Virus record (IMG/VR): IMGVR_UViG_3300028666_000032
Location: 5,879 to 69,878 of that record
Strand: one strand, 5' to 3'
DNA: 64,000 nucleotides
DNA from: a virus
Shown: positions 12,529-55,890 of the stretch, in pieces
Numbering within the stretch: the first letter of the stretch is position 1
Layout of the letters: each line of letters opens with the position of its first letter
Translations under genes and position numbers: made by a program
The notes under the pieces: model-generated
What the model was told of the DNA's origin: nothing
The model's input: only the letters and a program-made list of their open reading frames with translations
The model's database searches: none

Positions 12529-12553
12529 GCCAATTCTGCGCCAATGGCGCGTT

Positions 12554-13328: not shown

Positions 13329-13413
13329 CGCGCCTCCTATCCGTTGTGAGGCGTGTAAATTACGACAACACAACGGATAGTACAAGCGAGATGGAGTAAC
13401 CTATTGTTTAACT

Positions 13414-29640: not shown

Positions 29641-29827
29641 GCGGAGGCCGTTCTCGACCGTTTTGTAAATCGTGGCCATGAGAGTGAGCAAGGCAAAGGC
29701 TGTTATGGAAACTGCAATAACTGCGGCCAGGAACAACATCGTCCCCGCATATTATCATCGAAAGGCCGCTGCCTGCAATAAATCTACAAGCGTTTGGCCC
29801 TGCGTCGGCTAGGCTTATCGGCATCAA
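29570..29827 (-). CDS. GcrA C-terminal-like protein
   Basis: ISLADAGPNACRFIAG...ICG....GRSYCSFH matches the GcrA C-terminal CRWP/FCG/YCxxH pattern. Confidence 0.65.
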   Translation of the reverse strand: MMPISLADAGPNACRFIAGSGLSMIICGDDVVPGRSYCSFHNSLCLAHSHGHDLQNGRERPPLPEIRKVQDGSPSDTPQEPVQTV

Positions 29828-35475: not shown

Positions 35476-35524
35476 TTGACATCTGATGGTAGTTACAGTA
35501 ACGTATCACTAACGGTCGTGTCAA
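35476..35524 (+). promoter_or_regulatory. promoter with overlapping imperfect palindrome (possible recombinase-binding/res-like site)
   Basis: TTGACA-N17-TAACGT; the segment is bracketed by TTGACA...TGTCAA and contains GTTAC-A-GTAAC. Confidence 0.5.
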
Positions 35525-35544
35525 CTATTGTTTTCGAGTGTCAA

Positions 35545-36207
35545 ATGCAGGGTAAACGAGGCCCCAAAAAGAAGCCATACATCCACAAAATCGCCGAAAC
35601 AACGGTTAAGTGGAAAAAGCGCAAAGACGGCGAGCCGATGATGATCGGGTATGCTCGCGTCTCAATGAACGATCAAAGCAACCAGCGTCAAATAGATTCA
35701 CTGGTCGAATATGGCGTAGCGCCAGAAGATATTTTCCAGGACAAACAGAGCGGTAAAACAATGGATAGGCCAGCGTGGCAAGCTTGTTTCCGCGATCTGC
35801 AAAAAGACGATTGGCTGGTGATCTATTCTCTTGACCGGCTCGGTCGCAACCTTCGCGACCTCCTCGATATTGAGCAACAGCTTTACGAAAAAGGCATCAA
35901 ACTGAAAGTTATCTGTCAGCCCATTGATACCAGTAACGCGGGTGGACGGCATTTCTTTCACATGCTTGCGTCACAGGCTCAATGGGAACGTGAATGGAAT
36001 TGGGAACGCACGATGCACGGCTTATCCAAAGCGCGTGATCGCGGAAGCATCGGCGGTCAGCCTTCGCCGTTCTCCGACAAGGAAATCCGCGCAGCATTGC
36101 GGAAAGCAAAAACCGTTAGTGGTGCGGCTAAGATTTTGAAATGCGCAAAGGTGACAATTCATCGGCGCATGAAGGAATGGGAAGCAGCGAAGGAGGCAGC
36201 AGCATGA
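35545..36207 (+). CDS. small serine recombinase (resolvase/invertase family)
   Basis: MIGYARVS catalytic Ser motif, Q..Q...L, DKQSG...RP, VIYSLDRLGRN, IDTS, and a C-terminal HTH; basic N-terminal extension. Confidence 0.93.
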   Translation: MQGKRGPKKKPYIHKIAETTVKWKKRKDGEPMMIGYARVSMNDQSNQRQIDSLVEYGVAPEDIFQDKQSGKTMDRPAWQACFRDLQKDDWLVIYSLDRLGRNLRDLLDIEQQLYEKGIKLKVICQPIDTSNAGGRHFFHMLASQAQWEREWNWERTMHGLSKARDRGSIGGQPSPFSDKEIRAALRKAKTVSGAAKILKCAKVTIHRRMKEWEAAKEAAA

Positions 36208-37051
36208 GCGACAAACCAGTTACGACGAAAGCTCCGTGCGAAGGCGATTGGATAACTTCGCCACCCCACCAATTTGAGATCATAGACAAGATCGAGGAAG
36301 CGGGCTGGTTTGGATCGAAGAAAGTCCGCGTTATTTACAAATGCAAGGCTTGTGGTCGAGTGACCGAGAATGGCGTGAGACTATGAAATCAGATCAGCCG
36401 CCCGTCTTAAAAAACAAGCATGGATCTTTCAGCATCGGCGACAAGGTTTCTTTTGATGTCGAAAACCAGATCAGTGGTGGCTATAGCTGGGACAGCCACG
36501 GAGAACTGCGCATGCGCAACGGCGAGTTGATTATAAAAACGAGACAGGGCGTCGTGACGATTGGCAAAGGTTACGATGCTTATATCGGCTCAATACGTCC
36601 GCAGGTAGCCAGTCCATACGAGAGGCCGCTGTGAGGGCGACATCGGACCTTCTTAAGAAAGCAGCCATCCAACTCGAATGGCATATCGAACGGTGCGAGA
36701 ACGGCACCGAGGAGGAAGGATTTATTAGCCCGCAGGATGTTTATCCGATGGAGCGATTGGAAATGTCCAAAAGCGTTCTGGCGCAACTCAAGGAAGCTAT
36801 AAATGGCTGAGCCACAAACGACCGACTACGAGACGATCATGGCCGCGCTTTATTATCCCATGAGAGACGATGCAACGTGGGAGAAGATGCAGAAGAAGTG
36901 TCATCAGGCGATAGCGGCTTTTCAGCGTCTAGTCCCACCGCCAGTCAGTAATAAATACGTTGCCCTTGGATGTGAGCCTTTCGGTGTTTCGAATGACCGA
37001 TAAACCACGAAAGCAGACTAACACCGGCTCAGCCGGAGAAACTAGCTATGG

Positions 37052-37627
37052 GTGAGGATCTTGATTGCTTGTGAATGCAGCGGAATTGTAAGGGACGCTT
37101 TTATCCAGCGCGGCCATGACGCTACTTCGTGCGACCTGAAACCGACGCGCCGACTTGGCCCGCACTATCAGGGCGACGTTCGCGACATTCTGCACATGTC
37201 TTGGGACATGATGATCGCGCACCCGGTCTGCAAGATCATGGCGAACAGCGGAGTTAGATGGTTGCATGAAAGACCAGAACGCTGGAAGCTTTTAGAAGAA
37301 GGTTGCGCGTTCTTTAAACTGTTTATCGACGCGGCTCATATCCCGAAGCGTTGCGTTGAAAACTCCATTATGCACGGCCACGCTAGAAAGTTGATCGGCA
37401 GAAAATGGGATCAGATCATTCAGCCCTGGTGGTTCGGAGCGCCATTTACTAAAGCAGCCGAGTTACATCTAATCGGCCTGCCGAAATTGCCGCAGGAAAG
37501 AACGAAGGATAGCTACGATCATATCGAACCGAAATGCTGGAAGATGGCACCGAGTGCCGACCGCGAAGAACTGCGCAGCAATACCGAACCCGAAGTTGCA
37601 CGAGCCATGGCGGAGTATTGGGGATGA
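37052..37627 (+). CDS. DNA cytosine methyltransferase-like protein
   Basis: RILIACECSGIVRDAF...SCDL...DMMIAHPVC...VENS...IIQPWWFG; a phage DNA methylase-like family. Confidence 0.7.
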   Translation: MRILIACECSGIVRDAFIQRGHDATSCDLKPTRRLGPHYQGDVRDILHMSWDMMIAHPVCKIMANSGVRWLHERPERWKLLEEGCAFFKLFIDAAHIPKRCVENSIMHGHARKLIGRKWDQIIQPWWFGAPFTKAAELHLIGLPKLPQERTKDSYDHIEPKCWKMAPSADREELRSNTEPEVARAMAEYWG

Positions 37628-38320
37628 AAAACGAACAGACACAAACGACGCCACCATGGGGGAAATGCCCACACTGCAAAACAAACATCCGCGTCAGGAA
37701 CCGGAGGTTTTATTGCCTTAAGTGTGACAAAGATCTGGGAGAAGCCAAATGAATAGAACGACGCCGGTTAGGGAATTTATGCAGTGGCTACTCCGCGAGC
37801 CATTTTGGATTTTCTACATTGCCGGTGTTGGCCTGCTTTTCCTAAACTTCGTGGGAGCATTCCGATGACATCACAAACGACACTTTCGCCGTCCGAAGAG
37901 GAAGCGTTACGCCTTTGGCAAAAACTGGCATCGGATAATTTGTTCGTGGCTGAGACGCACGACAAGCAACCCGTGAAATATTTCATCAAAGTCGTGTCCA
38001 AATGGCTGGAAGCGAGAGGATCGATATGAGCAACCCACAAACGACTGAACATGACAAAGAAGTCGGCGATGTTTTGGCTGATGCGCTCGCCGCGTTGACG
38101 AACGAAGCCATGCGCCATATCGCGAAAATCTCGAATGATAGAGTGGGCGTTATGCTCGCCGTGGCTACCCTATGCACTCACCGTTTCGAAATGGTTTATC
38201 GGACCGACTTTGCCGATGCGATGCGTGACGCAAAAAAGAAGGACGAAGCGAAGCCCCCAACCGAATACTCCGAGGCTTTGGTGGAGCAATGAGCAAAACA
38301 GATACCACGAGTGACGCAAC

Positions 38321-38911
38321 GTGATTGCCGCGCTGTTTGTCATGCCTAACGGCGCATATTTTAATCTTCCCGATGTCGATCCGTGGGACGAAAAAAGGGA
38401 TGCGCGGAAATATGACGGGCCGTATCCGGTTGTTGCTCACCCCCCATGTGCGCGGTGGTCGAGACTGGCAAAATTCTGTGAGGCGCGGCATGGACTAAAG
38501 GTTGGGGAGGATGGCGGTTGCTTCGCAGCTGCTCTAGCGGCGGTTCGTAAGTTCGGTGGCGTGATAGAGCATCCTGCGTTCTCTAAAGCGTGGGCATCGC
38601 ATGGATTGCCTAGACCGCCGACAAAGCATCACGGATGGACTGTCGGGTTAGATGGCGGGGCGTCCTGTTATATCGAGCAGGGAAGATATGGTCATGTAAT
38701 GAAGAAGGCAACTTGGCTTTACGCTTTTAGAGCTGAACTCCCTGAGCTCAAGTGGGGGTACACCCCGGACAGCGAAGGAAAGTTGGCTACCAAACGGGAT
38801 TGGCGCGGCGGTATGGACAAATGGAGAAACGCAACTGGATATAAAGTTGCTAATGCAACGCCACAAGAATTTAAGGAAGTTTTGATCGCAATGGCTAGGA
38901 GTGTAAAATGA
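38321..38911 (+). CDS. DNA methyltransferase-like protein
   Basis: DARKYDGPYPVVAHPPCARW...GGVIEHPA...KKATWLY. Confidence 0.6.
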   Translation: MIAALFVMPNGAYFNLPDVDPWDEKRDARKYDGPYPVVAHPPCARWSRLAKFCEARHGLKVGEDGGCFAAALAAVRKFGGVIEHPAFSKAWASHGLPRPPTKHHGWTVGLDGGASCYIEQGRYGHVMKKATWLYAFRAELPELKWGYTPDSEGKLATKRDWRGGMDKWRNATGYKVANATPQEFKEVLIAMARSVK

Positions 38912-41900
38912 AAGACACAACACAAACGACCCGGATAAACACATGAGGCGCGGATCATCGCAAGCAACCATCGATAGATCGCCCATCAGGACATTTTATA
39001 CGGTCGGAGGGTTCTATAAACTATACGACAATAACTTTGCATCGCAAGGTAAGACCAAATGTGACGTTTGCTGCCAGGAAGAATGGTCGGGAACTTTTTA
39101 CCACAAAGAGAAATTCAATTGCTGCAACTCGCACGCTATCTCTGCCGAAAATATCCTCGCATCCGGAGCCACATGGCAAGACGCCCTACAACTATCACTT
39201 TGCAACGGAATTTTGATGGAGATTAGCAAATGCATGAAGGCGGAATAGCTCCAATCACAGACCGTTTCAATCTTATGGATTTTACGGACTCACTAATCAA
39301 TGACCTTAAGCTTCTGCGCGAAGGTGAAATATCAATCCACGAAGCGCACGCTCGCGCCAACCTAGCAAAGCAAGTCCTCAAGTCCGTTCACTACACGATT
39401 GTGGCTCAAAAGTTTATGATCGAGCAGGCGCAGTTGGCAGAGAAGCCGGTTCAAATTGCGAAGGGAAAAAAGAAATGTCCAAAGAAACAGTAACGACCGA
39501 CCTGCTCGACCGGTTCACAGCCTTTGTGATGGGGGTCCACTTATTGCTCGTTGCCCTAATCATCGGGGTGGCCATCTGGGAGGCAGCACATGGACGATTC
39601 TAAAACCACGGTAGACAAAATCGACAAACTGCTTCGAGAAAGGGCACGCGAACTTCTGGATAGCACGCGCCTCGCAATCGAAATCGCCTTTCGCGATCCG
39701 AAGTATCAGCAGCTAGTTTGGATGGCGATAGCCGAGACAGCAGAGAAATATGCCAGAGCAGCGGAAAGGGAAGCCAATGCCAAAATCTAATTCACATCCG
39801 ACGAGGATGCCATGTTCTTTGGACTTTTAATTTTAGCTTTCTGGATAAAGGAGAGGTTCGATGTCTAAACCACAAACGACTGGACGTTCACCAACAACGA
39901 AGAAGATTGATCCGACTGTTGGCCGCGATAGCGTCATCGTTCGCCTTACGCTTCTAACTGGAGCATGTCGCCAGCCGCGTATCTCGAAGAAGCAGATCGA
40001 GGATAGTTTGCAACGCTACATCAAGGAGCTGTCCGATGGCTGATCCACATACCACGAGCCGTGACATCGACGAAGCTTGCTACGGCGGCATTATGGACGA
40101 CAAACCTAACACCACGCGACACAGCCCCGACTTGTGGGACGAAGCCTACGAAACTGTCGTGACGCTTCGCGGTAGCAGTGATGTGCCAGGGTTCTATATC
40201 TGTGTGGAAACGGAATATCAGAAATTGTTGGAGGCGAGAGATGCCCAATCAAACTGAAACGACTGCCAAGGCGCACGAGCTTGCAATGAGGATAAGCCAC
40301 TTTTGCTGTTCGTCGATACGGCACGATGAGACGATTTTGAAATCCGTCACTGAATTTATCCAAGAAGAATTGGATGCCGCTTATACGGATGGATGGAAGG
40401 CCGCTAATGGAGAAACGCGATGAGTTCACAAACGACGAGGAGAAACCAATGATCGGACATTTCTGTAAGGCGCTTCATAAGTTCATCTTCACCCGCTGGT
40501 CTAGCTGCGAGCATTGCCATGGTAAGTAAGCCAGAAACCACAAGACCTCCAATATGGCTATGGTTGCCGATCACGCTGTTCCTTCTGCTGGGTGCGTCGG
40601 TGATTTTATCTGGCTGCTTTATGTGTCCATCGATGGACGACAACTGCCCACTCTTGCGAGGCAACGGTGACTGATAATCCACAAACCACAAATTCTGATG
40701 ACTGGCTCGCTGGCTATCATCAGGCGCTTGAAGATTCAGCAACGCTAGTCGAGACCCATCTAGTCTATCCGTATTGTGCCACGAAATTGCAGCCGATCAC
40801 TAAGGGACGAGCAACTAAAGGCAACCAGCCACGCCACGTTTACGCAGAGGCAATAAGGGCAATGAAGGAGACGGGACTATGATCGATAAACCAGAAACCA
40901 CGAGCTTCACATGACGGACGACAACATCATCAAGCTTCAAAATGTGAAAGAGGTTGTTGATCCTGCGTCTTGTGCGAGGAGCGGCAAAATTATGCTCCAC
41001 TACAACATTGAGGATCACGACACGGTTGAACTTGAGGGAAGCATCACGCTGGCGGAGTGCTGCTTTCTTTACATGAAGCTTGGTCAGTATTTGAACTCAG
41101 AACTTGGAGATGAGGAATGACACATACGACCGAGACATTTGAAATCCCCGGCCTACCCGGATTATGGCGGGAGATCGAGGCTCGGTATGATTATGAGAAA
41201 GACAAAAGCCGTTGCCCGAATTGCCACGGTATCGGAATCCCTTGGGCTGGATGGTTTAGTTGCGACACCGCCTGTCACTGCAAGGCCCTGGTGGAAGATG
41301 GGCGCGCCTTTGTTCCGGTGGTGGGGCCATGACAACTAAAACGACTCGTAAGAAGAAATCGATCCCTTACGATCAAATGTCCGAAGACGAACAGGAAGAT
41401 TTTCGAAGGGAGACTTGCCGAATAGTAAAATGCGCAACCCGATTCAAATGTGATGAGGAAGACGATGAAGACTGATCCACATACCACGCCTGCCGTTGTC
41501 CGATCTCTCGACGACCTTTTCGCGGAGGCGAGGCGCTATGGACTGATCGACATTTTCGGTTCAGCCGATGGCACCTATTCAGCGAACATCACCTTCTCGA
41601 CCGTCACCAATACCAAGCTGGAGGCCAGAAGCGGACACGGCCATCCAACACCAAACATGGCCTTGCAATTCGCGATAGATGCGGCGCGTTCGATTGTCAC
41701 ATCGGTAAAGGAGCTGGCCAATGTCTGATTCACAAACGACAATTCCTTGGAAGTCAATCAGCCAATATCATGGCGGCGAAGCTCTGTTCTATTACCCAGA
41801 GGTCAAGGGAAGCCAGCACGCTTCGAACGATAGATCGGCGACATGCGACTTCGGCCTGCCGTGGAAAAACAGGAAGCCAACTTACTTCACCTACGTTTTC

Positions 41901-43354
41901 CCGCCGGAGGAAGCATGACAACTGAAACCACGAAACCGCTAGAAGAATATTCCGATGAGGCCAAAGCACTCGCTCTCGATGTCTGGAGAGCGGGGAACAG
42001 ACACGGCCCGGACGCAGAACGACAGATGGATATTTTGAAAGTGTGCGCGGAGTATTTGGAGAAGGCCAGGCGTGATGCTCACAAGGCCGGGTTCATAGAG
42101 GGATTTGCAAAATGAGTAAACCCCAAACCACACCGCGCTGCCCACACTGTGGCTACACGAAGCAGGATGCAATAATTCACGGAGATCACTGGCTTTGCAA
42201 AGGCAGGCAAGACGCTCCTTGGGAAGTCGAAGCGGCATACCAGAACTTGCAACGCGCAGCCGTGAAAAGGAACCCATTCAATGGAGCAATCTGAAACCAC
42301 AGCCTGCGGCTACTGCGGCTGCATCCACCAGACCAAATGTCCGATGGTGAAGGCTATCGAATATCATCAGGATGGCACAGTGAAGCGCGTCGAGTTTTAT
42401 TCGGCGTCGGACTACATGCAAAAGGCCGTAGTCGTTCCGGCGCATCAACCGGCGATCACCGAGACAACTTGGGGCGAGCATTGGGGGAAAAATGGCTAAT
42501 CCACAAACGACCTTTTTCAAAATAAGAGATAAGGTGCGCGATGTTACTTTCTGGATTTTGCTGCCAGTAATTCTTCCGCTAGTTCTGGTTGGGTATACCT
42601 TTGGGTATCTTTATGGATATTTTCGAGGAGCTTTTATTTTGGGGAGTGACCCGCATGCCCAATAATCCACAAACGACTGACCTGATCAACAGGCTTCGCG
42701 GTCACTATCGCACGCCGATCACCGACGGCCTTGGGCCAGCAGGCGGTGAGGAGCCGGACAACCCGCATGAGCACGTTCGGACATTTCCCGTGCCACCAAT
42801 CCATAAAGAGGCTGCCGCCGAGATCGAGCGACTGCGCAATGGCATCAAAAAGGTGCTGAATGAGGGAGTGCAGAAAACGGAAGGACCATACTCACCGAAG
42901 AACAATAAATGCAAACACGGCAGATACGGCTACGAAGGCTGCGACAATTGCACCGACGAATTTTTGGAGGAGTTGCTCAATGGATAAATCAGAAACCACG
43001 GCCTCCCGCATCGAAGAAGCGGCGGAAAACCTTCTTAACGCTATTGAGGGCAAGACCAAGAGTGAAGCCGTGACCATCATCATTGGGTATTCTCGTAAGA
43101 TTTATAGGGATGCTCGCGCGCATGAACGGGAGGACTTGCATGGCATCGCCAACCAAAACTGAAACGACCAGAGAGGATCGTCATTACGCAACCATCGGTC
43201 ACACATGGGCATACGTGCCACTGGATAACCAGCTCTATAACCCGTGGGCCAAAGAAGGGATTGAACCGCTCTATATAAGGATGGTCGGAGGCCCGAACGA
43301 TGGGCGCTGGCTCGTATTTAAGGATCAGAGAGCTTATGACAATTGGGTGCTGGC

Positions 43355-43558
43355 ATGAGTGGGAAAACAGATACGACCTGGCAGACGATGGAAACCGCGC
43401 CGAAGGACGGAACGATGGTTCTGCTTTTCAAGCAATCGTCCGGCACAAAGGGTTCGGGATATTGGGATGAGCGCGAACAATTCTGGCGCATCGGCGGCAT
43501 GTGTTATTTTAACGGTGCCTCTCATTGGGCTCCATACCCGGAGGTGCCAAATGCCTAA
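43355..43558 (+). CDS. DUF551-like protein
   Basis: WQTMETAPKDGTMVLL...SHWAPYPEVP. Confidence 0.7.
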   Translation: MSGKTDTTWQTMETAPKDGTMVLLFKQSSGTKGSGYWDEREQFWRIGGMCYFNGASHWAPYPEVPNA

Positions 43559-43859
43559 ACCAGATACGACGCTTAACAACCAACCAAAGGAGAACACCAT
43601 GAAGAAGATTGTTACCGAAGTTGAAGGCGAAGGATTGGTTAAGCTTCTCGGAGAAACCGTTACGCTGTTCTGCGCCTCATATATCTACACTGGCAAGCTT
43701 GTCGGCGTGAATGATAGCTGCGTCCTTCTCGATGACGCAAAAGTCGTTTACGAAACCGGCGCGTTTAACGAGAAGGAATGGAAAGACGCTCAAAAACTCC
43801 CCGGCTCCTGGTATATACAATTGGGAATGGTCGAGAGCTTCGGCATCTTGAAGGTGTAG
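43551..43859 (+). CDS. Sm-like fold phage protein
   Basis: LLGETVTLFCASYIYTGKLVGVNDSCVLLDDAKVVYETG; internal AAGGAG RBS and ATG at 43599. Confidence 0.55.
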   Translation: MPKPDTTLNNQPKENTMKKIVTEVEGEGLVKLLGETVTLFCASYIYTGKLVGVNDSCVLLDDAKVVYETGAFNEKEWKDAQKLPGSWYIQLGMVESFGILKV

Positions 43860-43889
43860 AAATGTACGCCATCAAAAAGAAAAAATATT

Positions 43890-44015
43890 GGTCGCGGTCG
43901 CGGTCGGGGTCGGGGTCGGGGTCGTGGTCGTGGTCGGGGTCGCGGTCGTGGTCGGGGTCGCGGTCGTGGTCGGGGTCGCGGTCGTGGTCGGGGTCGCGGT
44001 CGTGGTCGGGGTCGT
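43890..44015 (+). repeat. GGTCGN hexamer tandem repeat (21 units, 18-nt higher-order unit) within ORF 43862-44020
   Basis: Encodes SRSRSGSGSGSWSW(SGSRSW)4SGS. Confidence 0.9.
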
Positions 44016-45647
44016 TATGAAAAATCCACAAACCACACTTGACGACATCACGCTGACAAGTTTTATCGACGCGATCAAACTGGCTGTCGATGGTGGTCAT
44101 AACAATATTGCCCCTTTGGGAATGTCGGGCGCGAATATATACCTGCACCGGAAAGAGAGCCGTGCGCAGGAAGTGTCGATCCGGCTTTACTGTGGGGATG
44201 CAGAACTGTTGATTACGAACGAGAGCAAGGATTTTCTCTTTTATGGGCGCTATGACATTTCTCTTGGCGTCGATTTTGTGGCGAACGAATATTATAGAAT
44301 CTTTTACCTGCTCAAAGGCAAAATACCGAAAACGAAAGAAGACAGGGAGCCATTAAAGATTCAGGAAAATCCGGAATACTCAATCGGCTTTAAGATGTTG
44401 GATAAATATTATGGCCGATAATCCACAAACGACCGCTTGCCGCGCCTGCATGATTATCTTTTGCGTGTTCGTCGCGCCTCTGGTCATGCCATTCATCGCG
44501 CTCAACCACCTGCGCCGCAATCTCGGTAGCGCTTTGGGCTACTGGTGGCTCGACATGCGGCAAGAGGTCAATTCGTGGAGGGACGCATGGCCGAAGTGAA
44601 ACCGCAAGTTAGGAAGCGCCCGACAGGGGAGAAAGAAGTCACTCTTCGTTTTACCATTCATGGCAACATGCTTAGGTGCGACGACGCAGGAGAGATTAGC
44701 TGCAACAACTTGGCGGACGATGACATGGCCCTTACTTTTGGGGAGACGCTTGCTGGGTATCTACAGGGGTATTTCTATGACTACAAAAACTGAAACCACG
44801 ACCGTGAAGCCATTCACCGCCTTTGTAGTGGGAGTGTATTTTGCTTTGCTAACTGGAGCAGTTCTACAGACTGTTGGCCAAACGACTACGTGTAAACCGG
44901 AACCCATTACGATGTGGAATGCCGTTGAATATCTGACATGGGTATATGGCGGTGGATTTGCCGGATTTTGCATCGGGAGAAAACTATGACAACAGAAAAG
45001 ACGACCGATTACGAACGCATCCTCCAAAGTGTGTTGGGGAAATATAACAATACTATCACAGCGGAAGATGGCAGCAAGAGGTTGGAACTCGGCGATTCCG
45101 TTTATCTTGAATTTGATTCCGATGAAAACTATACGGGAGCTTATAGCTATGAATGATCCGCATACCACTCTCCCTGCCGTTAATCCAGAATTATTGAAAC
45201 TCATGCATCTGGCAAATGCGGTTTCATACACGAGGGCAGCCTATGAGTTCTCTCCTTACTCTAAAGAAGAGGCGCTGCGGCTGGCAAAGGAGGAAATGGA
45301 TGCCTATAAACGATAAAACACAAACGACTGCCAAGCTTGATCTTCAGGCGAAGAAGCACGGTGCACGCTTCCGCACGCAAGATGGCAGGATCGCTACCCT
45401 GATCGCCTTCGACCGAAGATTGAAGCGTCCTTATATTTTTCGAGTTGGAGACGAGGTGTGGACACGACGCAGAGATGGAACGCACTGCGCCACATGCGAC
45501 GGCACCGTTTACCCGGCGATTGTGAGGCAGCTATGAAACCAGAGACCACGAAACGTCTGCCCTCTTGGCGCTTTGGTATTTGCATGAAGCCCGGAAAGAT
45601 CAACTGCATGCACAAGACTGGAAAGCCTTACTACTATCCGGTGAGCC

Positions 45648-46205
45648 ATGACGACTGAAGCAATCAGCAAAAAACCTAAACTCCTAGAGGCTGGGCACGC
45701 AGACAACTTCCAAACGCCGCCTTCAGCACTCGATTGCTTACTTCCCTATCTCAGGCGTGAGTGGCGGATATGGGAGCCAGCATGCGGAAAAGGAAACTTG
45801 GTTCGCGCATTTCACGACAACGGATTCCGAGTTACGGGCACCGATATAGATAGCGGAAGCGACTACGACTTCCTAAACATCCCACTCGGCAGCGACTTTT
45901 CGCTGATGTGCGATGCCATAATCACGAACCCGCCATTTTCGGTCAAAGAGAAGTTTCTTTCGCGCTGCTATGACTGGCAAATGCCGTTCGCCCTGCTCAT
46001 GCCAATCACAACCTTCGACAGCCGGGAACGCAGGAAGCTTTTCAGCCGCCATGGTGTTCAGATCATCCTACCAAATGGCCGCATCAACTTTGAAACGCCG
46101 AACGGCAAGGGATCGTCAAGCTGGTTTTATACAGCTTGGTTCACGCACGGGCTTAACCTTCCGAAACAGCTAAACTTTCACGGTCTTGAGATGGAGCTTG
46201 TATGA
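45648..46205 (+). CDS. DNA adenine (N6) methyltransferase-like protein
   Basis: FQTPP, IWEPACGKGNL (motif I), IITNPPFS (motif IV) and RINF. Confidence 0.85.
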   Translation: MTTEAISKKPKLLEAGHADNFQTPPSALDCLLPYLRREWRIWEPACGKGNLVRAFHDNGFRVTGTDIDSGSDYDFLNIPLGSDFSLMCDAIITNPPFSVKEKFLSRCYDWQMPFALLMPITTFDSRERRKLFSRHGVQIILPNGRINFETPNGKGSSSWFYTAWFTHGLNLPKQLNFHGLEMELV

Positions 46206-48113
46206 AGGAAACACAAACTACGATTGAAAAGCTGAAAGAGATGCGCGAAGAAATGGTGCTAAAGGCCATTTCTTTGAAGCAGATTATCTCTCAACTTGAG
46301 ATCGCGAATGAAATGGCCGAATCATTAGAAAAGTGCCGGGCGCAATTTGCCTTCTATACGGCCAACCATTTGTCGGCAGGAAAGGCGGATAGGGAAAAGA
46401 CAAACTCTGAATTTGCCGAATTGTGCCTGTCGGTTTTAATAAAGTGGGAGAAAATAAATGACTGAAACTACTCTCGACGACGATCCGGTTCGCACGATGG
46501 CATACAAACGTGGCTTCAATAACGGGCTTGAGGAAGCGGCAAAGATAGTTGATGCCGTAGGCTACTCGGGTGGTCTGAAGAACTGGCAAGCGGCCCAGAT
46601 GATCCGAGACATGAAGGTCGCGCCATGAAACCAGATACCACAAAGGTTCAAGTTGAGGGGCCGGAATTGAATGAATATGCCGAGCAAACCCTCATGCAGT
46701 TCATCGAGGAGTTGACGGAACTGTTGGACAAGATTCCAGCGGCCCATAGAGATCAGGCGACAATCAGAGGTTCTGGGGAATACACCACTTACACCTACGT
46801 TGAATACGACCGCCCCGAGACTGACGAAGAAAAAGACAATCGGTTGGAGAGAGAAGCCAGGATGCGAACCGAGAATGAAAAACGGGATAGGGAGCAGCTT
46901 GCGAAGCTGAAGGCAAGATATGAAGCCTGAATCTAAAACGACGAAATGGTGGCAAGCAGCCATCGGCTATACTTCGGCAATCCTTCTATTTTGGAAACCG
47001 GAGATTTGGCGAGCGTTCATGAAGGGATTTCGCAATGGGTGATACTGGCGCACTGGTGGCAGCGTTCCTAGCCGTATTCGTGTTTGGTGCTTTTTGCGGG
47101 ATCGCAATTTTTGCCGCTGGATCAAAGTGGGGAAAGCATGACTGACGAATTACAAACGACAATCTCAGAAAGGTTTTGGCGTTGGCTCTACAAGTTTTGT
47201 GACCGGCAGATCGCAAATATTTATCTCTATCGTCAGCATGTGAATTTGAAATGCCCGAACTGCAATCAATGGTCACACAATTACGAATATCGCTTCATGT
47301 CATCGGACGGAGATTTCGACACCCTGAGATGTGGATGTTGCGGGCAAGAAACTGAATGGCGATGCGAAGGCGGATTTTGGTTCACGAAGAAGGAGTTTCT
47401 AAAACATGCAGTCTAAGGATTTACAAACGACGACCAGAACAGCTTCGGATCGGGATACGATCAAGGATACCTTGCTGGGCTGAAAGCCGTTCGGGATTTC
47501 ATGAGCGGAGATGTCGATGCCTAATTCAGATACCACGGCTAGGGCGTAATGGCAATTCTCAGAAAGCTTACTGAGGTTGAGAGGGAAGCTAAGATCGCAA
47601 GCTTGAAGCGTGAGCGTCATTATTTCTTGCAACGCTATGAGTTATCAAAAGAGAGGTGGCAGTTGATGGCTGCGCTTTCGGTTGCAATCGAGATTTTTCA
47701 TTGGAGGTTCCATGCCCGATAAAACGATAACCACGAACGTAGTCGGCTTTAAGCCAAAAGAAAAAACACATTACGTTAAAATCGCTCGTAATGGAGAAAG
47801 GTTCTGGCTGCGAGCGTTGCCCGATGGAATGAGCGGCACGAAATATGGGAAGGTTGATAACCATCTCATTGAGGCGCACCCATATAAATACGGGGACGTA
47901 ATAGAATACAAACAGGATGAGGTATTAGATGAACAGCGAACCTAAAACCACCACCATTAGCATCGAGAACGCACATCCCTCGGCCCGTCCACTTTCGTGT
48001 GCATAATGCTTGCCGGCATGATGGGTTTGGTCTTTCGCCGGGTCAGTCTTGCCTTGCCGTCCGTACTGGCGGATAATGCAATGAAGGCCACTGGGGCCTA
48101 GGGGGGGTGCGTT

Positions 48114-48563
48114 ATGCCTGAGCCAATAACGATCGGCGTCTTCGTAGTCGGTGTACTTGTCAAGATCGCCGAAGGCGGCGTAGCCGAGCTCGCCAAAAGC
48201 ACTGCAAAGCAGGCGTACGCAGCACTCAAGGGCAAGGTTGCGGAATGGGCGGGGGCCAAAGTGGAGGTGCTCGAGGCCGCGCCCGACTCTGAAAAAATTC
48301 GGCGAGAGATTGCGGAGGCAATCGATAACCGCGACGGCGCGGAGCAATCGCTGATCAGATCCCTGGCACAAGCTGTGATCGACAAGGAGTCCAGCGGCAG
48401 CGGACGCGCCATCGCCCTCGATTTTGGCGACTTGAAGAATGTTGCGGTCACCCTCAAAAAAGTAAGTGCTCAAGGCAACGCCACAGGTGCTCAATTCAGA
48501 CGGGTTGAAGGCGGCACCATCAATGTCGATGAGGCTTCTGCCGCGAGCAGCGCAAAAAAATAG
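48114..48563 (+). CDS. Bell/RHIM-associated-like small helical protein
   Basis: MPEPITIG...AKQAYAALKGKV...LEAAPDS pattern with a beta-rich G/N/V tail; ends A AAA AAA TAG. Confidence 0.5.
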   Translation: MPEPITIGVFVVGVLVKIAEGGVAELAKSTAKQAYAALKGKVAEWAGAKVEVLEAAPDSEKIRREIAEAIDNRDGAEQSLIRSLAQAVIDKESSGSGRAIALDFGDLKNVAVTLKKVSAQGNATGAQFRRVEGGTINVDEASAASSAKK

Positions 48564-48592
48564 AGACAGCAGCGATAACTGCCCGCACCGCT

Positions 48593-49441
48593 GTGCCGAA
48601 TAACGGGCCCTATTCTGATGCAGGCCGCGACAATGGCGGCCCAAGTGTGGCCGCAACTGGTGTGCTCATAAACGTAGATCAGTCAAGTTCTGCTAATAAC
48701 ACTTCCCAAGACCTAGTAATGAAGCTAATGGGGCCTTTGGCAGAGCGTGCAGGAAAGCACTTGGCAGAAGTTCTGGACCACGGCCTTGCCTCAACTGGGG
48801 CTAAGAACGTCGACTCCCATATCGAAAAGGTGAAGGAAGTCTCTGGAATCTCAGAGCCAACATTTACTCCGAAAAAAACTGAGAAACTTGCCGAGTGGGT
48901 GACCGAGGCATCTGAGGTAAATGAGCGAGAAAGCCCGGAACTGGCGGCTGCATGGCGGGCAGCACTGGCGGATATATTTAGCGGCAATGACTACGAGTTG
49001 CTAGCGATCGCAAAGAAGCTTACCAAAAGAGATATTCAGACCATGATGCGATTACATCACGGTGACGAATTGGATTTTCACGATGCTGGCGACAGGCTTG
49101 TGATGCTAGGAATTGCAAAAAGGGTGCCGTTCGGCGGACGCCCATTTAGGCTCTGGGTATTGCTTACACTTACTGTAAGTTTAGTCGCAGTCGCACCTTT
49201 TCTCGCTGAGTCAGTAGAGGCTGCGCGTCATGTGAGCGTGAGTCTCGACTCGGACACACCGATTGGCTCAATGATTCGGGCGGCCAAGAGCCTCGGCTTG
49301 GCCAGTGGAATCTGCTATGTACTCGGTTCCGTATACTATCTGTTTGCCAATGCGAGCAGGCTTTCTGGCTATCGTCTTAATTATATAGGCGATGAGGTAT
49401 ATTCCAAAATACGACCTTATCTTCCAGATGAACTGAAATGA
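48593..49441 (+). CDS. Abi-alpha/DUF4393-like domain with two C-terminal TM helices
   Basis: LAEWVTEASEV...PELAAAWRAALA...LLAIAKKLT; hydrophobic LWVLLTLTVSLVAVAPFL and LGLASGICYVLGSVYYLF; weak GTG start without an RBS. Confidence 0.45.
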   Translation: MPNNGPYSDAGRDNGGPSVAATGVLINVDQSSSANNTSQDLVMKLMGPLAERAGKHLAEVLDHGLASTGAKNVDSHIEKVKEVSGISEPTFTPKKTEKLAEWVTEASEVNERESPELAAAWRAALADIFSGNDYELLAIAKKLTKRDIQTMMRLHHGDELDFHDAGDRLVMLGIAKRVPFGGRPFRLWVLLTLTVSLVAVAPFLAESVEAARHVSVSLDSDTPIGSMIRAAKSLGLASGICYVLGSVYYLFANASRLSGYRLNYIGDEVYSKIRPYLPDELK

Positions 49442-49453
49442 TTCCGGCCGTGA

Positions 49454-49756
49454 GCAAACCTAAATCCCAGCACCGCAGCAGGTCGGTTGATCTTCCACAT
49501 CCTCGTAACCGTGGCGCAGTTCGAGCGGGAATGGAGCAATGAGCGCAGCTTGCATGGGCTTATTAAGGCCCGGGAGCGCGGCGTGCGCGGCGGTAGGCTC
49601 AAGACCTACACCGATATCGAGATCGCCGCAGCGATGAAGAAGACGAAAGGCAATTACGAAAAGGCCGGGGAGATCATCGGTGCGAAAAAGATCACGATGA
49701 TTCGGCGTTGGAAGAAGATGCCAGGAAAGTTAAAGCTAGGCGTGAAGACGAAATAA
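49454..49756 (+). pseudogene. N-terminally truncated serine recombinase
   Basis: NLNPSTAAGRLIFHILVTVAQFEREWSNERSLHGLIKARERGVRGGR plus HTH aligns with the C-half of 35545-36207; catalytic domain missing, in-frame stop at 49451. Confidence 0.85.
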
Positions 49757-49841
49757 AGTTGCCGAAAATAGCAATAGTATTGCTCCGATTGTAACTATTT
49801 ATTGTAGTCCAAAGGACTATACTCCTAGCTATACAGTCCTT

Positions 49842-51104
49842 ATGGACACCTCGGCTACGGAGATGACTATGGCTACCCAAGAAAACAATACGGTCAAAAG
49901 GACCTTCCAGATACCAGCGGAAAATCTCACCATCTTTCTCGGCAAGATCGACGAACTGAATCGCCGCGCCAAGCGCATGAAGCAGCAACCCATCACTATC
50001 ACGCGCGGACCTGTCGCCAACGCGGTTCGCATGATCTCCACCAAAGTCTATGGCGCGTTCGGCCAGACCGAATGGCGCGACAAGCCAGTCACCGTCGAGT
50101 TGCATGAGATCACCGTTGAAGGTCAATCGCCCCAGATCACCGGCTGGACGCTCGTCTCGCGCCTCCAATACATCGATGGCTCCATTCTTGCCCATAGCGT
50201 CCCCGGCGAGACGTGTCCGGCAAAATACCGCGATGATTGGTCCAAGCGTTGCGACCATTGCAACACCAATCGCACCCGCAAGGATATGTTCATCGTCCGT
50301 GATGAGGCCGGAAAGCACATCTGTGTCGGGCGCAACTGCGTCAAGGATTTTACCGGCCATGTCTCACCGAACGAGCTGGCTTTCGCTGCTGAATGGCTGC
50401 ACTCTGTTTCCGAACTCGGCAACGAGGACAACGATATTTACAGTGGCGGCGAAGATGCCCGCCTCCAACTCACCGACCTTCTGGCCTGTGCTGCTTGCGC
50501 CATCCGTAACATCGGCTGGGTAAGCAAGAAAGCAGCCGACCAGAACGGAACGAAGCCCACTGTCACGATTGCCATGACGCTTTTGTGCGGTAAGCAGCCC
50601 GAGGGGGTGAGTGTCGAATTGATCGTTGACGACAAGGACCAGGCCATGGCGGAAGCCGCCATCGAATGGGCCAAGCAGATCAACCCTCTTGGCGATAACG
50701 ACTACCTGCTTAACCTCCGCTCAATCGCGCAGAAGATCATCATCTCCGGAAGGATTTCCGGTCTCGCGGTTTCGCTCGTGTCTGCCTACCAACGCGAGAT
50801 TGGCATCGTTGCTGCCCGCAAGAAGATGGCGGAAGAAAGCCGCCACGTTGGGGAAGTCGGCAGCCGGGATCGATTCAACCTGACGGTCGAGAAGATCATC
50901 GACATCATTGGTCACTACGGCATGTCTCACATCCACCTTTTCCGCGATGACCATGGCAACGTCATGAAGTGGAAGTCGTCGCGGGAGCGCCTCGATACTG
51001 GCAAAACCTATCAGGTCAAAGGCACGATCAAGTCCCACGACCTATACGCAGACATCAAGCAAACCTGCCTGAGCCGGTGTGTGTGCGTGGAGGCCGCGAG
51101 ATGA
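49842..51104 (+). CDS. conserved phage hypothetical protein (Zn-binding CDHC/VGRNC, C-terminal OB-like fold)
   Basis: CDHCNTNRTRKDMFIV...CVGRNCVKDF; VKGTIKSHDLY...QTCLSRC. Confidence 0.6.
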   Translation: MDTSATEMTMATQENNTVKRTFQIPAENLTIFLGKIDELNRRAKRMKQQPITITRGPVANAVRMISTKVYGAFGQTEWRDKPVTVELHEITVEGQSPQITGWTLVSRLQYIDGSILAHSVPGETCPAKYRDDWSKRCDHCNTNRTRKDMFIVRDEAGKHICVGRNCVKDFTGHVSPNELAFAAEWLHSVSELGNEDNDIYSGGEDARLQLTDLLACAACAIRNIGWVSKKAADQNGTKPTVTIAMTLLCGKQPEGVSVELIVDDKDQAMAEAAIEWAKQINPLGDNDYLLNLRSIAQKIIISGRISGLAVSLVSAYQREIGIVAARKKMAEESRHVGEVGSRDRFNLTVEKIIDIIGHYGMSHIHLFRDDHGNVMKWKSSRERLDTGKTYQVKGTIKSHDLYADIKQTCLSRCVCVEAAR

Positions 51105-51313
51105 GGCCACGCGAGATACGTGCCCTGCGGCTTTCCCTGGACCTGTCACAGCCAGAATTTCTGGAGAGGCTTGGCATAAAATCGGCTCGTTCGGCAGCAG
51201 CACGGCAGATGGTCAGTCGATGGGAGCGCGGAGAGCGAAACCCGTCAGCAGCAGCTACCGCCCTTATCGAGCAGCTTCGCGACAAGACGGCACGGAGGAG
51301 AGCAACGGCATGA
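51101..51313 (+). CDS. XRE-family HTH regulator
   Basis: MRPREIRALRLSLDLSQPEFLERLG...VSRWERGERNP. Confidence 0.8.
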   Translation: MRPREIRALRLSLDLSQPEFLERLGIKSARSAAARQMVSRWERGERNPSAAATALIEQLRDKTARRRATA

Positions 51314-51528
51314 TCGAATTTGACCCAAAGCGGACTCTACCCAACCTGAGCCGATGTCCGTTCTGTGGTGGTGATGCTCATTGGAATTACAGCTCAGGCG
51401 TGGCGTCCGGCGTCTCCTGCATCGAAATGGGTTGCCGGGCCAATGTTTCGTTCCACACGATGCGCAGCGAGACGCCGGAGGAAATTGCCAACCACTGGAA
51501 TACGAGGTTTGTCCGTGTCCAAGCCTGA
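51310..51528 (+). CDS. Lar-family restriction alleviation protein
   Basis: LSRCPFCGG...CIEMGC...IANHWNTR. Confidence 0.7.
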   Translation: MIEFDPKRTLPNLSRCPFCGGDAHWNYSSGVASGVSCIEMGCRANVSFHTMRSETPEEIANHWNTRFVRVQA

Positions 51529-51765
51529 TTCACAAACCACAATAGATCGAGTTGATGCCATGCTCGATGATATGTTCAAGGTCGATGGGCCAGAACTTAT
51601 GCAGCTTTCCCTCGGTGACTTCCGAAAACTTTGCTGGAAAGAGGATGCTTGCGGAGAATTTATCGCGGCGACAGCGACGATGGATGATATGACGGTGATC
51701 CAGGTCTCCAAAGAAAATGGGCCGAGCGTTTTAATTGATCCTGACGGTCATCCGCTGAGGTTCGC

Positions 51766-52137
51766 ATGAACAATCCACAAACCACGAAGGTCACTCACAT
51801 AGCCTTGGTCGATTCTCCGCCTGACCCGAACTGTGTTTGGGAAATGCCAAAGTCGGGAGACGGCATAACTTGGTCTCGCTGCACCAAGTGTGGTGAAATT
51901 AACATGGATGCGAACAAGTCGGTTGAATGTAAATGCCAACAGTTAGAAGTAGCGAAGTCGCTTAAGCGGTGCCCGTTCTGCAATGGAACGCCTGCGCTTT
52001 CAACTGAAACGAAGAAATTCCGGTCAGGTGGAAACGGAAAGGTCCATCAGATATTTTGCATGAACTGCTTTGCGGTGATTGATTCTCTTCACAGCTTCGG
52101 TGATGCCGCTGAGGCATGGAACAAGAGGGTAACATGA
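51766..52137 (+). CDS. Lar-family protein (cassette-motif start MNNPQTT)
   Basis: LKRCPFCNG...CMNC...AAEAWNKR. Confidence 0.7.
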   Translation: MNNPQTTKVTHIALVDSPPDPNCVWEMPKSGDGITWSRCTKCGEINMDANKSVECKCQQLEVAKSLKRCPFCNGTPALSTETKKFRSGGNGKVHQIFCMNCFAVIDSLHSFGDAAEAWNKRVT

Positions 52138-52836: not shown

Positions 52837-53661
52837 ATAAGAAAACCATCGAAGGCATAATTGGCTTCATCGCCATATTCGCAATCCCGATCGCTCTGTG
52901 GTGTTGGATCGTCATGCATGCGAGGCCGGTATGATCGTCTCTCTCATTCCGCGCCGCCTTCACCAACTTAATATTGACCTTACTTCATTATATGAAGCAG
53001 AGAAATTCCTAACCGATTTAGCAGTGCAGAAGTATTTCGAACGGCAGCTTTTCAAAGGGAGGATAAAATGCAACCTACGGCAGACGGATATATCCATCAA
53101 AGCAGACTGGATGACGCTTTCGAAGAATACGAAGCCTTCGTCCAGTCAGCTTTCCTCGCGCTTGTTCTCACAACACTCAAGCGCGACCTCACGAATGAGG
53201 AAACCCATTTGTTGCAACGATCAGCAGAATTGACGGCTGGCTATGACGGAAACTACCGAGGAGCGGACATTCAAGGTTAAGGCTGGGAAAGTCACCCGGC
53301 ATTTTCAGCAACTCGACATCGAGGATGCCTTGCGGCGAAATCCCGCTTTCAAAGAAATTCCTGAGGAGCAGCCAACCGTCAGTCCTGATCGCACGCCCCA
53401 CTGGAAAACCCAGCTCCGCGACAACGGACGGTTCTCCAGCAAGGAAAGCCAGAAGCGGACGAAGGCCAAAATCAAGGCGACTACCAAATCCCTTCGTCAG
53501 GATGTTCAACATGAGAGGCGCAGCAGAGATTGGCGAGACGACATTGGCGAGTTGATATTCGTTTGCGGGGCATTCGTCCTATTCCTGTGGATTGTGGCCG
53601 GTGGGATCGGGGGAACAGCCGCCATCGTCTCAGCCCTGAATTTCTGGCAGAGGCTAGGGCA

Positions 53662-53838
53662 ATGAGGTTGGCATTCATCCTCCTGCTAGCTCTGATTGCC
53701 TGCTCCGGCCAGACCAGCGTTTACGGCGATTACAACGACACCATGCGCGGCACCTGCTCGGCTCAAGGTGCGCAGCCTGTGACACATTACAGCCATGGTG
53801 GGTGGACGAGCGATTGCAGCGAGGCACTGCCCGAATGA
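53662..53838 (+). CDS. small lipoprotein
   Basis: MRLAFILLLALIACSG lipobox. Confidence 0.55.
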   Translation: MRLAFILLLALIACSGQTSVYGDYNDTMRGTCSAQGAQPVTHYSHGGWTSDCSEALPE

Positions 53839-55359: not shown

Positions 55360-55890
55360 ATGACGGCCAAGAAACTACGACCATGGCGAGCCCGCCCAAT
55401 CCCTACACCTCTAGATCAACATATAATAGATCGGTTTTGGTCTTGCGTTGATAAAGGGGGTGACTGCTGGCTTTGGACCTCAGGCACTTGGCCAACTGGA
55501 TATGGTCGATTTTATGTTGATAAACAACAGTATTTCTCTCAACGCATTTCTTACGCGCTCACACATGGATCATGTCCACCTGATAAAATGGTCTGCCATA
55601 AGTGCGACAATCCACCTTGCGTAAACCCGGATCATCTGTTCCTCGGCAGCGGGTTCGACAACATGAGGGATATGGTTTCGAAGGGACGAGTAGCCCGTGG
55701 AGGAAACCATGGAGAATGGGTTTCGGGCGAAAAGAACCACAGGGCCAAACTGGTAGCCTCACAAATCGTTGAAATAAGGCGGCTGCGGGCAGCGGGCGCG
55801 GAATGTAAGGACATTGCCAAAAAGTTCGGCATCCATAGGACGAATGTTTCCTTGATAGCGAATGGCCAGCGCTGGAAGCACATCGTCTAA
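55360..55890 (+). CDS. HNH endonuclease
   Basis: CWLWT, VCHKCDNPPCVNPDHLFLGSGFDN and a C-terminal HTH. Confidence 0.9.
   Translation: MTAKKLRPWRARPIPTPLDQHIIDRFWSCVDKGGDCWLWTSGTWPTGYGRFYVDKQQYFSQRISYALTHGSCPPDKMVCHKCDNPPCVNPDHLFLGSGFDNMRDMVSKGRVARGGNHGEWVSGEKNHRAKLVASQIVEIRRLRAAGAECKDIAKKFGIHRTNVSLIANGQRWKHIV

Follow-up and report, generated by a model that had tools for sequence, protein, structure and literature searches.

The stretch of DNA analysed here (the window) comprises 64,000 nucleotides (nt), bases 5879–69878 of the 69,878-base virus record IMGVR_UViG_3300028666_000032, which is rated 100% complete. The window is that of a tailed phage, labelled G000 below (G001, G002 and similar labels denote other uncultured phage records). 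Genes for tape-measure, portal, large terminase, head-protease-like and DnaB-like helicase proteins lie on the − strand from 1 to 29 kb, and a block of + strand genes spans 30.9 to about 56 kb. This block includes, from 36.8 to 52.1 kb, a chain of 44 small genes that share a word shortly after the start codon, which is ATG (42/44) or GTG (2/44). One to seven codons follow and then, in frame, NCW-SAW-ACS-ACN (W, A or T; S, C or G), encoding x-[P/T/S/L]-[Q/E/D/H/K]-Thr-Thr.

Copies of the word were collected as in-frame A-N-A-C-N-A-C no more than 8 codons from an in-frame ATG, GTG, or TTG between 36 and 54 kb. This yielded 51 candidates, and the 44 that form the gene chain were kept; gene 38908 has two copies, the second of which was counted. 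The rule fixes the A at −2 and both AC pairs and leaves all third codon positions free. With the first Thr codon as the anchor of the alignment, the 44 copies read R-A-W-N-C-W-S-A-W-A-C-S-A-C (extended form, (T-R-A-W)-N-C-W-S-A-W-A-C-S-A-C; alignment consensus, RAWNCWSAWACSAC). The longest invariant run is 2 nt, and the information content is ∼0 from +5 onward. The core CWSAWACSAC was matched 32 times in the window, always on the + strand and at 36813–51785, compared with an expectation of 1.36 (standard deviation 1.28; 100 shuffles, none of which reached 32). A weight matrix at ≥9 bits found 50 matches on the + strand (47 within the array and 3 elsewhere) and five weak ones on the − strand.

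Codon use within the word was markedly skewed. At the codon preceding the first Thr (codon −1), Gln is CAA in 20 copies and CAG in none, Glu is GAA in nine and GAG in one, Asp is GAT in five and GAC in none, and His is CAT in four and CAC in none, identical to the counts given in an earlier note on this DNA; Lys is AAA in four copies and AAG in one. The first Thr codon, described in the same note as ACG or ACC, twice ACT, and never ACA, is ACG in 22 copies, ACC in 20, ACT in two, and ACA in none. The second Thr codon (ACG 17, ACA 10, ACC 9, ACT 8) is close to the background, for which 24 long open reading frames (ORFs; 10,612 codons) served. There, Gln is CAA in 176 and CAG in 257 cases (41% CAA), Thr is ACA in 171, ACC in 258, ACG in 274, and ACT in 126 (ACC and ACG, 64%), and Pro is CCA in 91 of 450. 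Compared with this background, the exclusive use of CAA (P = 1.5e-8), the W-ending codon −1 (42/44 versus 1068/2073; P = 3.5e-10), the ACS at the first Thr (42/44; P = 2e-6, and P = 7e-5 when compared with the 26/44 of the second Thr), and the CCA in 16 of 19 Pro codons at −2 (P = 4e-9) all stood out. Thr codons at −3 and −2 end in W (ACW, 18/18), as opposed to the 42/44 ACS at the first Thr (P = 1e-13). Accordingly, the fraction of W at third positions is 0.90, 0.95, and 0.95 at codon offsets −3, −2, and −1, 0.05 at the first Thr, and 0.32–0.52 at offsets +1 to +9, that is, the third positions along the word read W, W, W, S, and are free thereafter. The constrained ones vary almost only between A and T or between C and G, that is, by transversion.

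The encoded residues, by comparison, vary widely. Codon −2 specifies Pro (19), Thr (13), Ser (9), Leu (2), or Glu (1), and codon −1 specifies Gln (20), Glu (10), Asp (5), Lys (5), or His (4). The range P/T/S/L and Q/E/D/H/K/V/I stated in the earlier note holds, with Val and Ile at codon −1 seen in three further, variant copies (36204, 47712, and 48114). Acidic and basic side chains thus occur at codon −1, joined by hydrophobic ones in variant copies and other phages, while the letters remain N-W-W.

Two other origins of the skew were rejected. Codons 2–10 of 76 non-array ORFs of ≥90 amino acids (aa), some of which may be spurious, lack the pattern: W at third positions amounts to 0.45 and Gln is CAA in 10/20, so the array bias is not matched by a generic AT-rich codon bias at 5′ ends, which the earlier note had already discounted. 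A Thr-Thr dipeptide within residues 2–11 occurs in 3 of these 76 ORFs. Paralogy of the array proteins was rejected because all-against-all BLASTP of 39 proteins of ≥30 aa aligned nothing past the first 7–10 residues (best E, 0.005).

Start modules and relay ORFs

Neighbouring array genes overlap (by 4, 8, 11, 14 nt, etc.). The array ATG precedes the stop codon of the upstream gene by 1–20 nt and the word follows that stop by 4–20 nt, which places the upstream stop between ATG and first Thr in 44/44 copies and, in nine of them, inside the word itself (NCT GAA, NCT AAA). The T-R-A-W at −10 to −7 is there because this stop occupies the position. The 44 stops are TGA in 31 and TAA in 13 cases and never TAG, which ends 7 of 52 long ORFs in the window. 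The distance from ATG to the first Thr codon is 15 nt in 18/44 and 18 nt in 13/44 copies, ACSAC starting 9–24 nt (mode 15) after the A of the ATG. Start-proximal copies are in frame in 42 of 43 cases, the sole exception being a degenerate copy in the 20-codon ORF at 36993; ribosome decoding or in-frame exchange of cassettes therefore matters.

A Shine–Dalgarno (SD) core match of ≥4 nt precedes 38/44 starts, compared with 26% of random positions. As neither promoter-like (17 versus 17.1 expected) nor terminator-like sites (26 versus 22.2 expected) are in excess, the 15-kb array reads as one long, tightly coupled polycistronic operon. In folding predictions, the word is unpaired to 0.63, versus 0.44 for control positions; no conserved hairpin or pairing partner of the word was seen in these predictions, the region being merely more unpaired.

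Seven array genes that have N-termini of their own and do not carry the word lie behind short ORFs that do. These relay ORFs have 10–41 codons (six have 10–20, one has 41) and overlap the start of the next gene by GTGA, ATGA, TAATG, or 11 nt (Table 1); 47929 and 48006 form a possible further pair. Only one or two of the seven relay-served genes have a usable SD of their own. For three of the genes, the alignment to a conserved family begins at residue 1; these are two DNA methyltransferases and phrog_12600. Homologues of the latter (58 of 61 loci found; L141–L143 were left out as partial matches) start at the same (M/V)IAA in other phages, and have neither mini-ORF nor motif, by which a tie of the word to particular gene neighbours was rejected. 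The same device is present in G004, where MKTETTTGQS* ends with ATGA on a 138-aa gene. At 43551, a motif-bearing extension of 16 codons is instead fused in frame to a core gene that keeps its own SD and ATG (43599); the core is 83% identical in DNA to a G001 gene, the extension is not.

This core opens a two-gene module (43599–44020), in which an 86-aa protein (MKKIVTEVEG...; Pfam search gave no family) precedes a peptide M(Y/I)A(I/V)KKKKYW(Ser-Arg/Gly/Trp)n, for which about 20 TCG-NGG hexamers code. Its counterpart in G001 (L059, 13560–14060) shares the 83% DNA identity between otherwise unrelated phages. Metagenome contigs pile up and break within the hexamer repeat. As a common factor of motif-bearing phages the module was rejected, being present only in G000 and G001.

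Table 1. Features of the array and its neighbours, in window coordinates.
Feature	Position	Strand	Remark
Serine recombinase (resolvase), first gene of the putative operon	35476..36207	+	Pfam PF00239, E=1.2e-36; TGA overlaps ATG of 36204, the first array gene
Array gene, variant copy MSDKPVTT (CCA GTT ACG ACG)	36204..36386	+	
Start module MAEPQTT, core CCACAAACGACC	36803..36823	+	gene to 37003
20-codon relay ORF, degenerate out-of-frame copy	36993..37055	+	TGA overlaps GTG 37052
Relay-served DNA methyltransferase (phrog_757), own N-terminus, GTG start	37052..37627	+	
Start module MKNEQTQTT	37624..37650	+	gene to 37752
Start module MTSQTT	37865..37882	+	gene to 38029
Start module MSNPQTT	38026..38046	+	gene to 38292
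11-codon relay ORF MSKTDTTSDAT*	38289..38324	+	GTGA overlap with GTG 38321
Relay-served gene phrog_12600, 196 aa	38321..38911	+	
12-codon relay ORF MKDTTQTTRINT*	38908..38946	+	ATGA overlap with 38943
Relay-served gene, 101 aa, no SD match	38943..39248	+	
Start module MDDSKTT	39590..39610	+	gene to 39790; G411 orthologue, 41% identity, keeps motif
Start module MSKPQTT	39861..39881	+	gene to 40043
Start module MADPHTT	40036..40056	+	gene to 40257
Start module MPNQTETT	40241..40264	+	upstream TGA within motif (ACT GAA)
10-codon relay ORF MSSQTTRRNQ*	40420..40452	+	ATGA overlap with 40449
Relay-served 26-aa Cys/His-rich ORF	40449..40529	+	
Start module MVSKPETT	40519..40542	+	gene to 40674
Start module VTDNPQTT, GTG start	40667..40690	+	gene to 40882
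11-codon relay ORF MIDKPETTSFT*	40879..40914	+	ATGA overlap with 40911
Relay-served gene, 69 aa, no SD match	40911..41120	+	
Start module MTHTT	41117..41131	+	gene to 41332
Start module MTTKTT	41329..41346	+	gene to 41475
Start module MKTDPHTT	41465..41488	+	gene to 41728
Start module MSDSQTT	41721..41741	+	gene to 41918
Start module MTTETT	41915..41932	+	gene to 42115
Start module MSKPQTT	42112..42132	+	gene to 42294
Start module MEQSETT	42281..42301	+	gene to 42499
Start module MANPQTT	42492..42512	+	gene to 42665
Start module MPNNPQTT	42655..42678	+	gene to 42987
Start module MDKSETT	42980..43000	+	gene to 43162; G004 orthologue MSNPQTT, 37% identity
Start module MASPTKTETT	43140..43169	+	gene to 43358
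Start module MSGKTDTT	43355..43378	+	gene to 43558
Start module MPKPDTT	43551..43571	+	in-frame extension of core gene 43599
Array gene without motif, Ser-(Arg/Gly/Trp) repeat peptide	43862..44020	+	ends ATGA on next start
Start module MKNPQTT	44017..44037	+	gene to 44421
Start module MADNPQTT	44411..44434	+	gene to 44599
Start module MTTKTETT	44777..44800	+	gene to 44989
Start module MTTEKTT, off-consensus AAG at −1	44986..45006	+	gene to 45156
Start module MNDPHTT	45149..45169	+	gene to 45316
Start module MPINDKTQTT	45300..45329	+	gene to 45536
41-codon motif-bearing relay ORF MKPETT...	45533..45658	+	11-nt overlap with methyltransferase start 45648
Relay-served DNA methyltransferase (phrog_799)	45648..46205	+	
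Start module MKETQTT, ACT at first Thr	46202..46222	+	gene to 46465
Start module MTETT, ACT at first Thr	46458..46472	+	gene to 46628
Start module MKPDTT	46625..46642	+	gene to 46930
Start module MKPESKTT	46920..46943	+	gene to 47042
Start module MTDELQTT	47138..47161	+	gene to 47416, HNH-like by phrog_8828
Start module MQSKDLQTT	47406..47432	+	25-codon ORF to 47483
10-codon relay ORF MPNSDTTARA*	47517..47549	+	TAATG overlap with 47549
Relay-served gene, 57 aa, no SD match	47549..47722	+	
Array gene, variant copy MPDKTITT (ACG ATA ACC ACG)	47712..47945	+	
25-codon motif-bearing ORF MNSEPKTT...	47929..48006	+	TAATG overlap with 31-codon ORF 48006–48101
Second serine recombinase, C-terminal remnant	49487..49756	+	PF00239 positions 103–144, E=2e-6
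Start module VSKPDSQTT, GTG start	51515..51541	+	gene to 51769
Start module MNNPQTT	51766..51786	+	gene to 52137, Lar-like restriction alleviation domain
Possible outlying variant copy MTETT (GAA ACT ACC)	53243..53665	+	
HNH-like gene	55360..55890		

The codon rule in other phages

When IMG/VR was scanned for the pattern and the loci retrieved were scanned in turn, at least seven other uncultured phage genomes proved to have arrays obeying the same rule: G001, G002/G003, G004, G410, G411, G412, and G413, with a weaker one in G414. The GC content of the motif-bearing phages ranges from 43 to 53%, and the array of G000 is the largest by far. Counted by strand, start-proximal copies number 40/1 in G000, 7/1 in G001, 9/2 in G002, 10/3 in G004, 10/0 in G410, 17/4 in G411, and 7/1 in G414. 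In a scan of nine loci (61 rows) that left codon −1 and the wobble bases of both Thr codons free, CAA was used 19 times and CAG once, AAA eight times and AAG once, GAA five times and GAG never, and Val was GTA in 9/9. The first Thr was ACS in 48/61 rows; seven of the 13 exceptions are "ATG ACW ACW" starts, five of which have a standard copy two codons later. Orthologues at 37–41% identity retain the word with differing residues (MDDSKTT/MTKDSQTT, MDKSETT/MSNPQTT).

In G411 (L275), two convergent motif arrays meet head-on (+ strand, about 8061–10053; − strand, about 10220–14186), each carrying the word in sense, and the minority-strand copies constitute the second array. The word thus follows gene orientation, not genome polarity, which disfavours packaging, replication, or Chi-like DNA signals. 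In front of the leading gene pair of its + array, G411 has a gene for a Cys-rich protein (...CWC...PCHADVLL), which in G001 precedes a different motif gene.

Apart from the word, the other motif phages share almost no genes with G000. No protein common to all of them was found at BLAST E<1e-5 among seven records, and the only family common to 5/7 is a tail-fibre/spike-like protein (window 10423–12528, − strand), which suggests related hosts and a reader of the word on the host side.

In three inter-phage cases, borders of homology fall at or near the start module. A gene pair of G002 and G411 is 78% identical in DNA over 260 nt while both flanks are unrelated; the homology starts within the first motif and stops just past the motif of the next gene. 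A three-way mosaic has G411 as A+B, G001 as A+C, and G410 as X+B, with the switch within the start module. The third is the core of gene 43551. Gene bodies appear to have been swapped among these phages, the breakpoints lying in the start module. Contigs from four DNA runs, near-identical to the window, contained neither joints between motif copies nor cassette polymorphism, the power of this comparison being low.

Possible function of the word

The proposal of the earlier note, by which the nucleic acid and not a peptide tag is under selection, stands, and it rests on five grounds: codon use, transversions, residue range, relay ORFs, and the other phages. A peptide signal is expected to fix residues and leave synonymous codons free, and the reverse is seen. 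The choice of Thr codon shifts with position, the residue at −1 spans Q/E/D/H/K/V/L/I, and third positions vary by transversion; because transitions are almost absent, neutral drift from a common ancestor is disfavoured as well. The word also sits in ORFs of 10–12 codons that are unable to tag the downstream protein, the relay ORFs have no evident role other than stopping where a larger gene starts, and the same codon rule recurs in other phages. All of this argues for selection on the letters and makes a pure peptide tag unlikely. An N-terminal tag x-[PST]-x-Thr-Thr (a degron, targeting, or modification site), to which the codon pattern would be secondary, can point to Thr-Thr being invariant and always in frame near the N-terminus, although this results partly from the selection rule; we regard it as very improbable. 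Thr-Thr may conceivably have a co-function at the peptide level.

Our preferred reading, held tentatively and at slightly less than even confidence, is that the word is an mRNA element which the ribosome reads in frame when it (re)initiates within a coupled operon, and that it also marks the joints of cassettes. It would act in cis and jointly with the start codon. A ribosome (re)starting at an array ATG would have ACSAC about 15–18 nt past the A of the ATG, presumably near the message entry of the ribosome, and the ribosome or a bound host factor would read the word, unpaired and rich in A and C, in frame while (re)initiating or in the earliest rounds of elongation. SD, ATG, and word would thus form a unit granting translation, or its coordinated control, to accessory genes, and those whose N-terminus cannot carry the word would be served by a short word-bearing ORF ending on their start. 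Placed at every gene start, the word would also be a joint at which phages of the same host guild swap gene bodies. We take this swapping to be a consequence and not the selected function because homology-driven exchange would not maintain a degenerate W/S pattern. The lock of the word to start, frame, and sense strand, the relay ORFs, and the unpaired A/C-rich make-up of the word lead us to infer the ribosome or a host factor as its reader and an effect on initiation. The W, W, W, S pattern fits duplex or codon–anticodon strength better than RNA–RNA pairing, which would favour a mechanism linked to decoding; the word may enhance (re)initiation, tune the first elongation steps, or serve as the handle of a class-specific regulator. 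In a bolder and doubtful version, a guild of phages with the same host would use NCW-NWW-ACS-ACN, approximately five codons past the ATG, as a second, frame-dependent start signal needed by the host ribosome or a factor on it to (re)initiate on accessory-gene messages or to control them jointly, with relay ORFs as adaptors and the word doubling as an in-frame "plug" for trading genes. To our knowledge, no initiation element sensitive to codon register is known in bacteria.

Several observations weigh against an element read by the ribosome. W/S degeneracy is unlike RNA–RNA pairing (which gives R or Y) and is unusual for the recognition of single-stranded RNA by proteins. Neither the late genes nor the + strand replication genes at 30.9–34 kb carry the word, and its restriction to accessory genes argues against a general enhancer. 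At least four array genes (36383, 36631, 39230, and 43862) have neither the motif nor a relay in front. The mosaic joints at the word suit a recombination joint equally well. In the latter case, the word would be kept mainly as an in-frame linker for the exchange of accessory cassettes, within one phage or between phages of a host guild, by short-homology recombination or some nuclease or recombinase, and translation would need only SD and ATG. The G002/G411 homology, spanning the first motif to just past the next, the G411/G001/G410 triangle, which switches inside the start module, and the 43551 core, conserved without its motif-bearing extension, all suit such a joint, for which the PeSL cassettes introduced below provide a precedent (PMC2839356). 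An in-frame site would keep recombinants translatable, which would explain both the frame rule and the restriction to the accessory array, and exchange would explain the same word in phages sharing almost no genes. However, of the three junctions, one has its left border about 30 nt past the motif and one may reach the ATG; selection alone also predicts junctions at gene borders; and exchange predicts one homogenised sequence, not a W/S-patterned word without longer invariant runs. Second-order selection is weak for keeping 44 copies, and the contigs of the four runs lacked joints (at low power). We therefore consider this explanation unlikely.

Control of a whole class of early messages has its model in RegA/RegB of T4, and a similar RNA-binding protein, endoribonuclease, or small RNA, of phage or host, might switch the array genes together at the word. 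Its specificity for one gene class in one operon and its predicted unpaired state suit this idea, as do the relay ORFs, which would put motif-less genes under the same control. Against it, no non-coding mirror-image of the word that could give rise to an antisense small RNA was found on either strand of this phage (the best complementary 11-mers of the + strand all lie within coding sequence, and the opposite strand has just the five weak matches), and no Rfam family was found in the window. At BLAST E<1e-5 the motif phages have no protein in common, so any regulator encoded by them would need to be a different one in each, and a frame-blind regulator leaves the 42/43 in-frame copies unexplained; we rate such a site as quite unlikely. 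The earlier note had named the core of a recombinase site as an example of what the word might be, and this found no support. In an integron-like cassette system, the word would be the core site of the serine recombinase heading the array. The resolvase lies directly upstream of the array and is translationally coupled to it in both G000 and G004, whose homologue (69% identical, the only relative found) also heads the array, and a truncated second recombinase lies near the end of the array of G000. However, G001, G410, G411, and G414, each rated 100% complete, lack PF00239, as do the fragments G002, G005, G412, and G413. Being present in only 2/6 records rated ≥90% complete, it is not a constant companion of the array. 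The 14 conserved positions contain no dyad, no second half-site follows beyond +4, and a recombinase needs neither precise stop/start overlaps nor a frame lock. The word is thus most improbable as the site of this enzyme.

The closest known system appears to be the start-associated sequences (SAS) of Cluster K mycobacteriophages, described as a short asymmetric word in 11–19 copies of one orientation, confined to the non-structural half of the genome beside the starts of unrelated, mostly ATG-linked genes, and sometimes containing the stop of the upstream gene (Pope et al. 2011, PMC3203893). The word described here is likewise short, asymmetric, present in many copies of one orientation (+), and located in the non-structural half (36.8–52.1 kb). 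In contrast, SAS are reported 3–7 bp upstream of the start, include an AGGAG core (that is, the SD), and follow the consensus GGGATAGGAGCCC with at most 2 deviations (PMC3203893), which is unrelated to RAWNCWSAWACSAC, whereas the word lies inside the coding sequence, frame-locked, 1–7 codons after the ATG and with a separate SD in 38/44 cases, and its about 45 copies are relayed by short ORFs. The function of SAS was described as still unverified in 2025 (PMC12699233).

The position just 3′ of the start codon, the A/C-rich composition, and the predicted unpaired state are shared with elements of E. coli and T7 mRNAs, the downstream box and CA-rich downstream enhancers, which are A/C-rich, unpaired, and said to raise translational efficiency; pairing of the downstream box with 16S rRNA is described as refuted for E. 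coli (PMC4611024). These enhancers are loosely defined, whereas the word is a frame-locked 10–14-nt sequence common to dozens of genes. In a partial test, 8 of 401 sampled Pseudomonadota genomes had a 16S helix-44 word whose complement matched AACCACAAA, in the variable part of the motif, and not the invariant ACSAC. Promoter-early stem-loop (PeSL) cassettes of T4-type phages are conserved regulatory repeats between small non-essential genes of hyperplastic regions, at which recombination also shuffles the modules (Arbiol et al. 2010, PMC2839356). The repeats described here may similarly mark joints between small accessory genes; PeSLs, however, are intergenic promoters with terminator hairpins, whereas the word is coding, in frame, and unpaired, has no hairpin, and is not accompanied by an excess of sigma-70-like promoters or terminators.

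Short upstream ORFs with a stop that overlaps the following start are a general device for translational coupling. The relay ORFs likewise end on the next start and would feed ribosomes to SD-less genes; unlike leader ORFs in general, each of them bears the word of its neighbours, and the relay seems to exist to supply it. A literature search, not extending to supplements, returned no description of this motif or of a coding, frame-locked start word with relay ORFs.

Translation starts in bacteria are thought to be set by SD, start codon, and lack of structure. This definition would gain a new layer from a sharply defined, frame-locked word behind the start codon that about 45 unrelated genes have in common, that recurs in several phages sharing almost no genes, and that short ORFs supply where needed. 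It would also offer gene finders a handle for calling the many tiny phage genes and their true starts, would delimit the units by which anti-restriction and host-takeover genes pass between these phages, and makes the question of start-associated sequences testable with synonymous and frame-shifted reporters.

Gene content and relatives of the phage

The recognisable cargo of the array is anti-restriction or mobile-DNA-like: two DNA methyltransferases, a Lar-like restriction-alleviation domain, and two HNH-like genes (Table 1). The motif chain is broken at 47900–51500 by what looks like a later insertion, an island of higher GC (53–56%) that holds − strand ORFs, genes for 149 and 282 aa, a 420-aa phrog_2319 gene, and the recombinase remnant. 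From one DNA run, a circularly permuted contig of the phage of 69.7 kb was assembled, and the sequencing runs holding the phage are labelled rhizosphere metagenomes. No tRNA gene was found in the window.

The nearest cultured relatives in the viral portal are Brevundimonas phages at 34%, and matches in the genome collection, at 33–41%, comprise a Paludibacterium prophage, an uncultured proteobacterium, and a metagenome-assembled genome of Bacillota. No excess of the motif was found in a Brevundimonas phage or in two proteobacterial genomes (that with the Paludibacterium prophage and the uncultured proteobacterium). Outside the array, the Pfam search matched DUF1153 (SciP-like helix-turn-helix; 25037–25336, E=4e-9), DUF1376 (25966–26787), and DUF559 (29173–29739), and gave no match for the neighbouring putative GcrA-like ORF (29570–29827).

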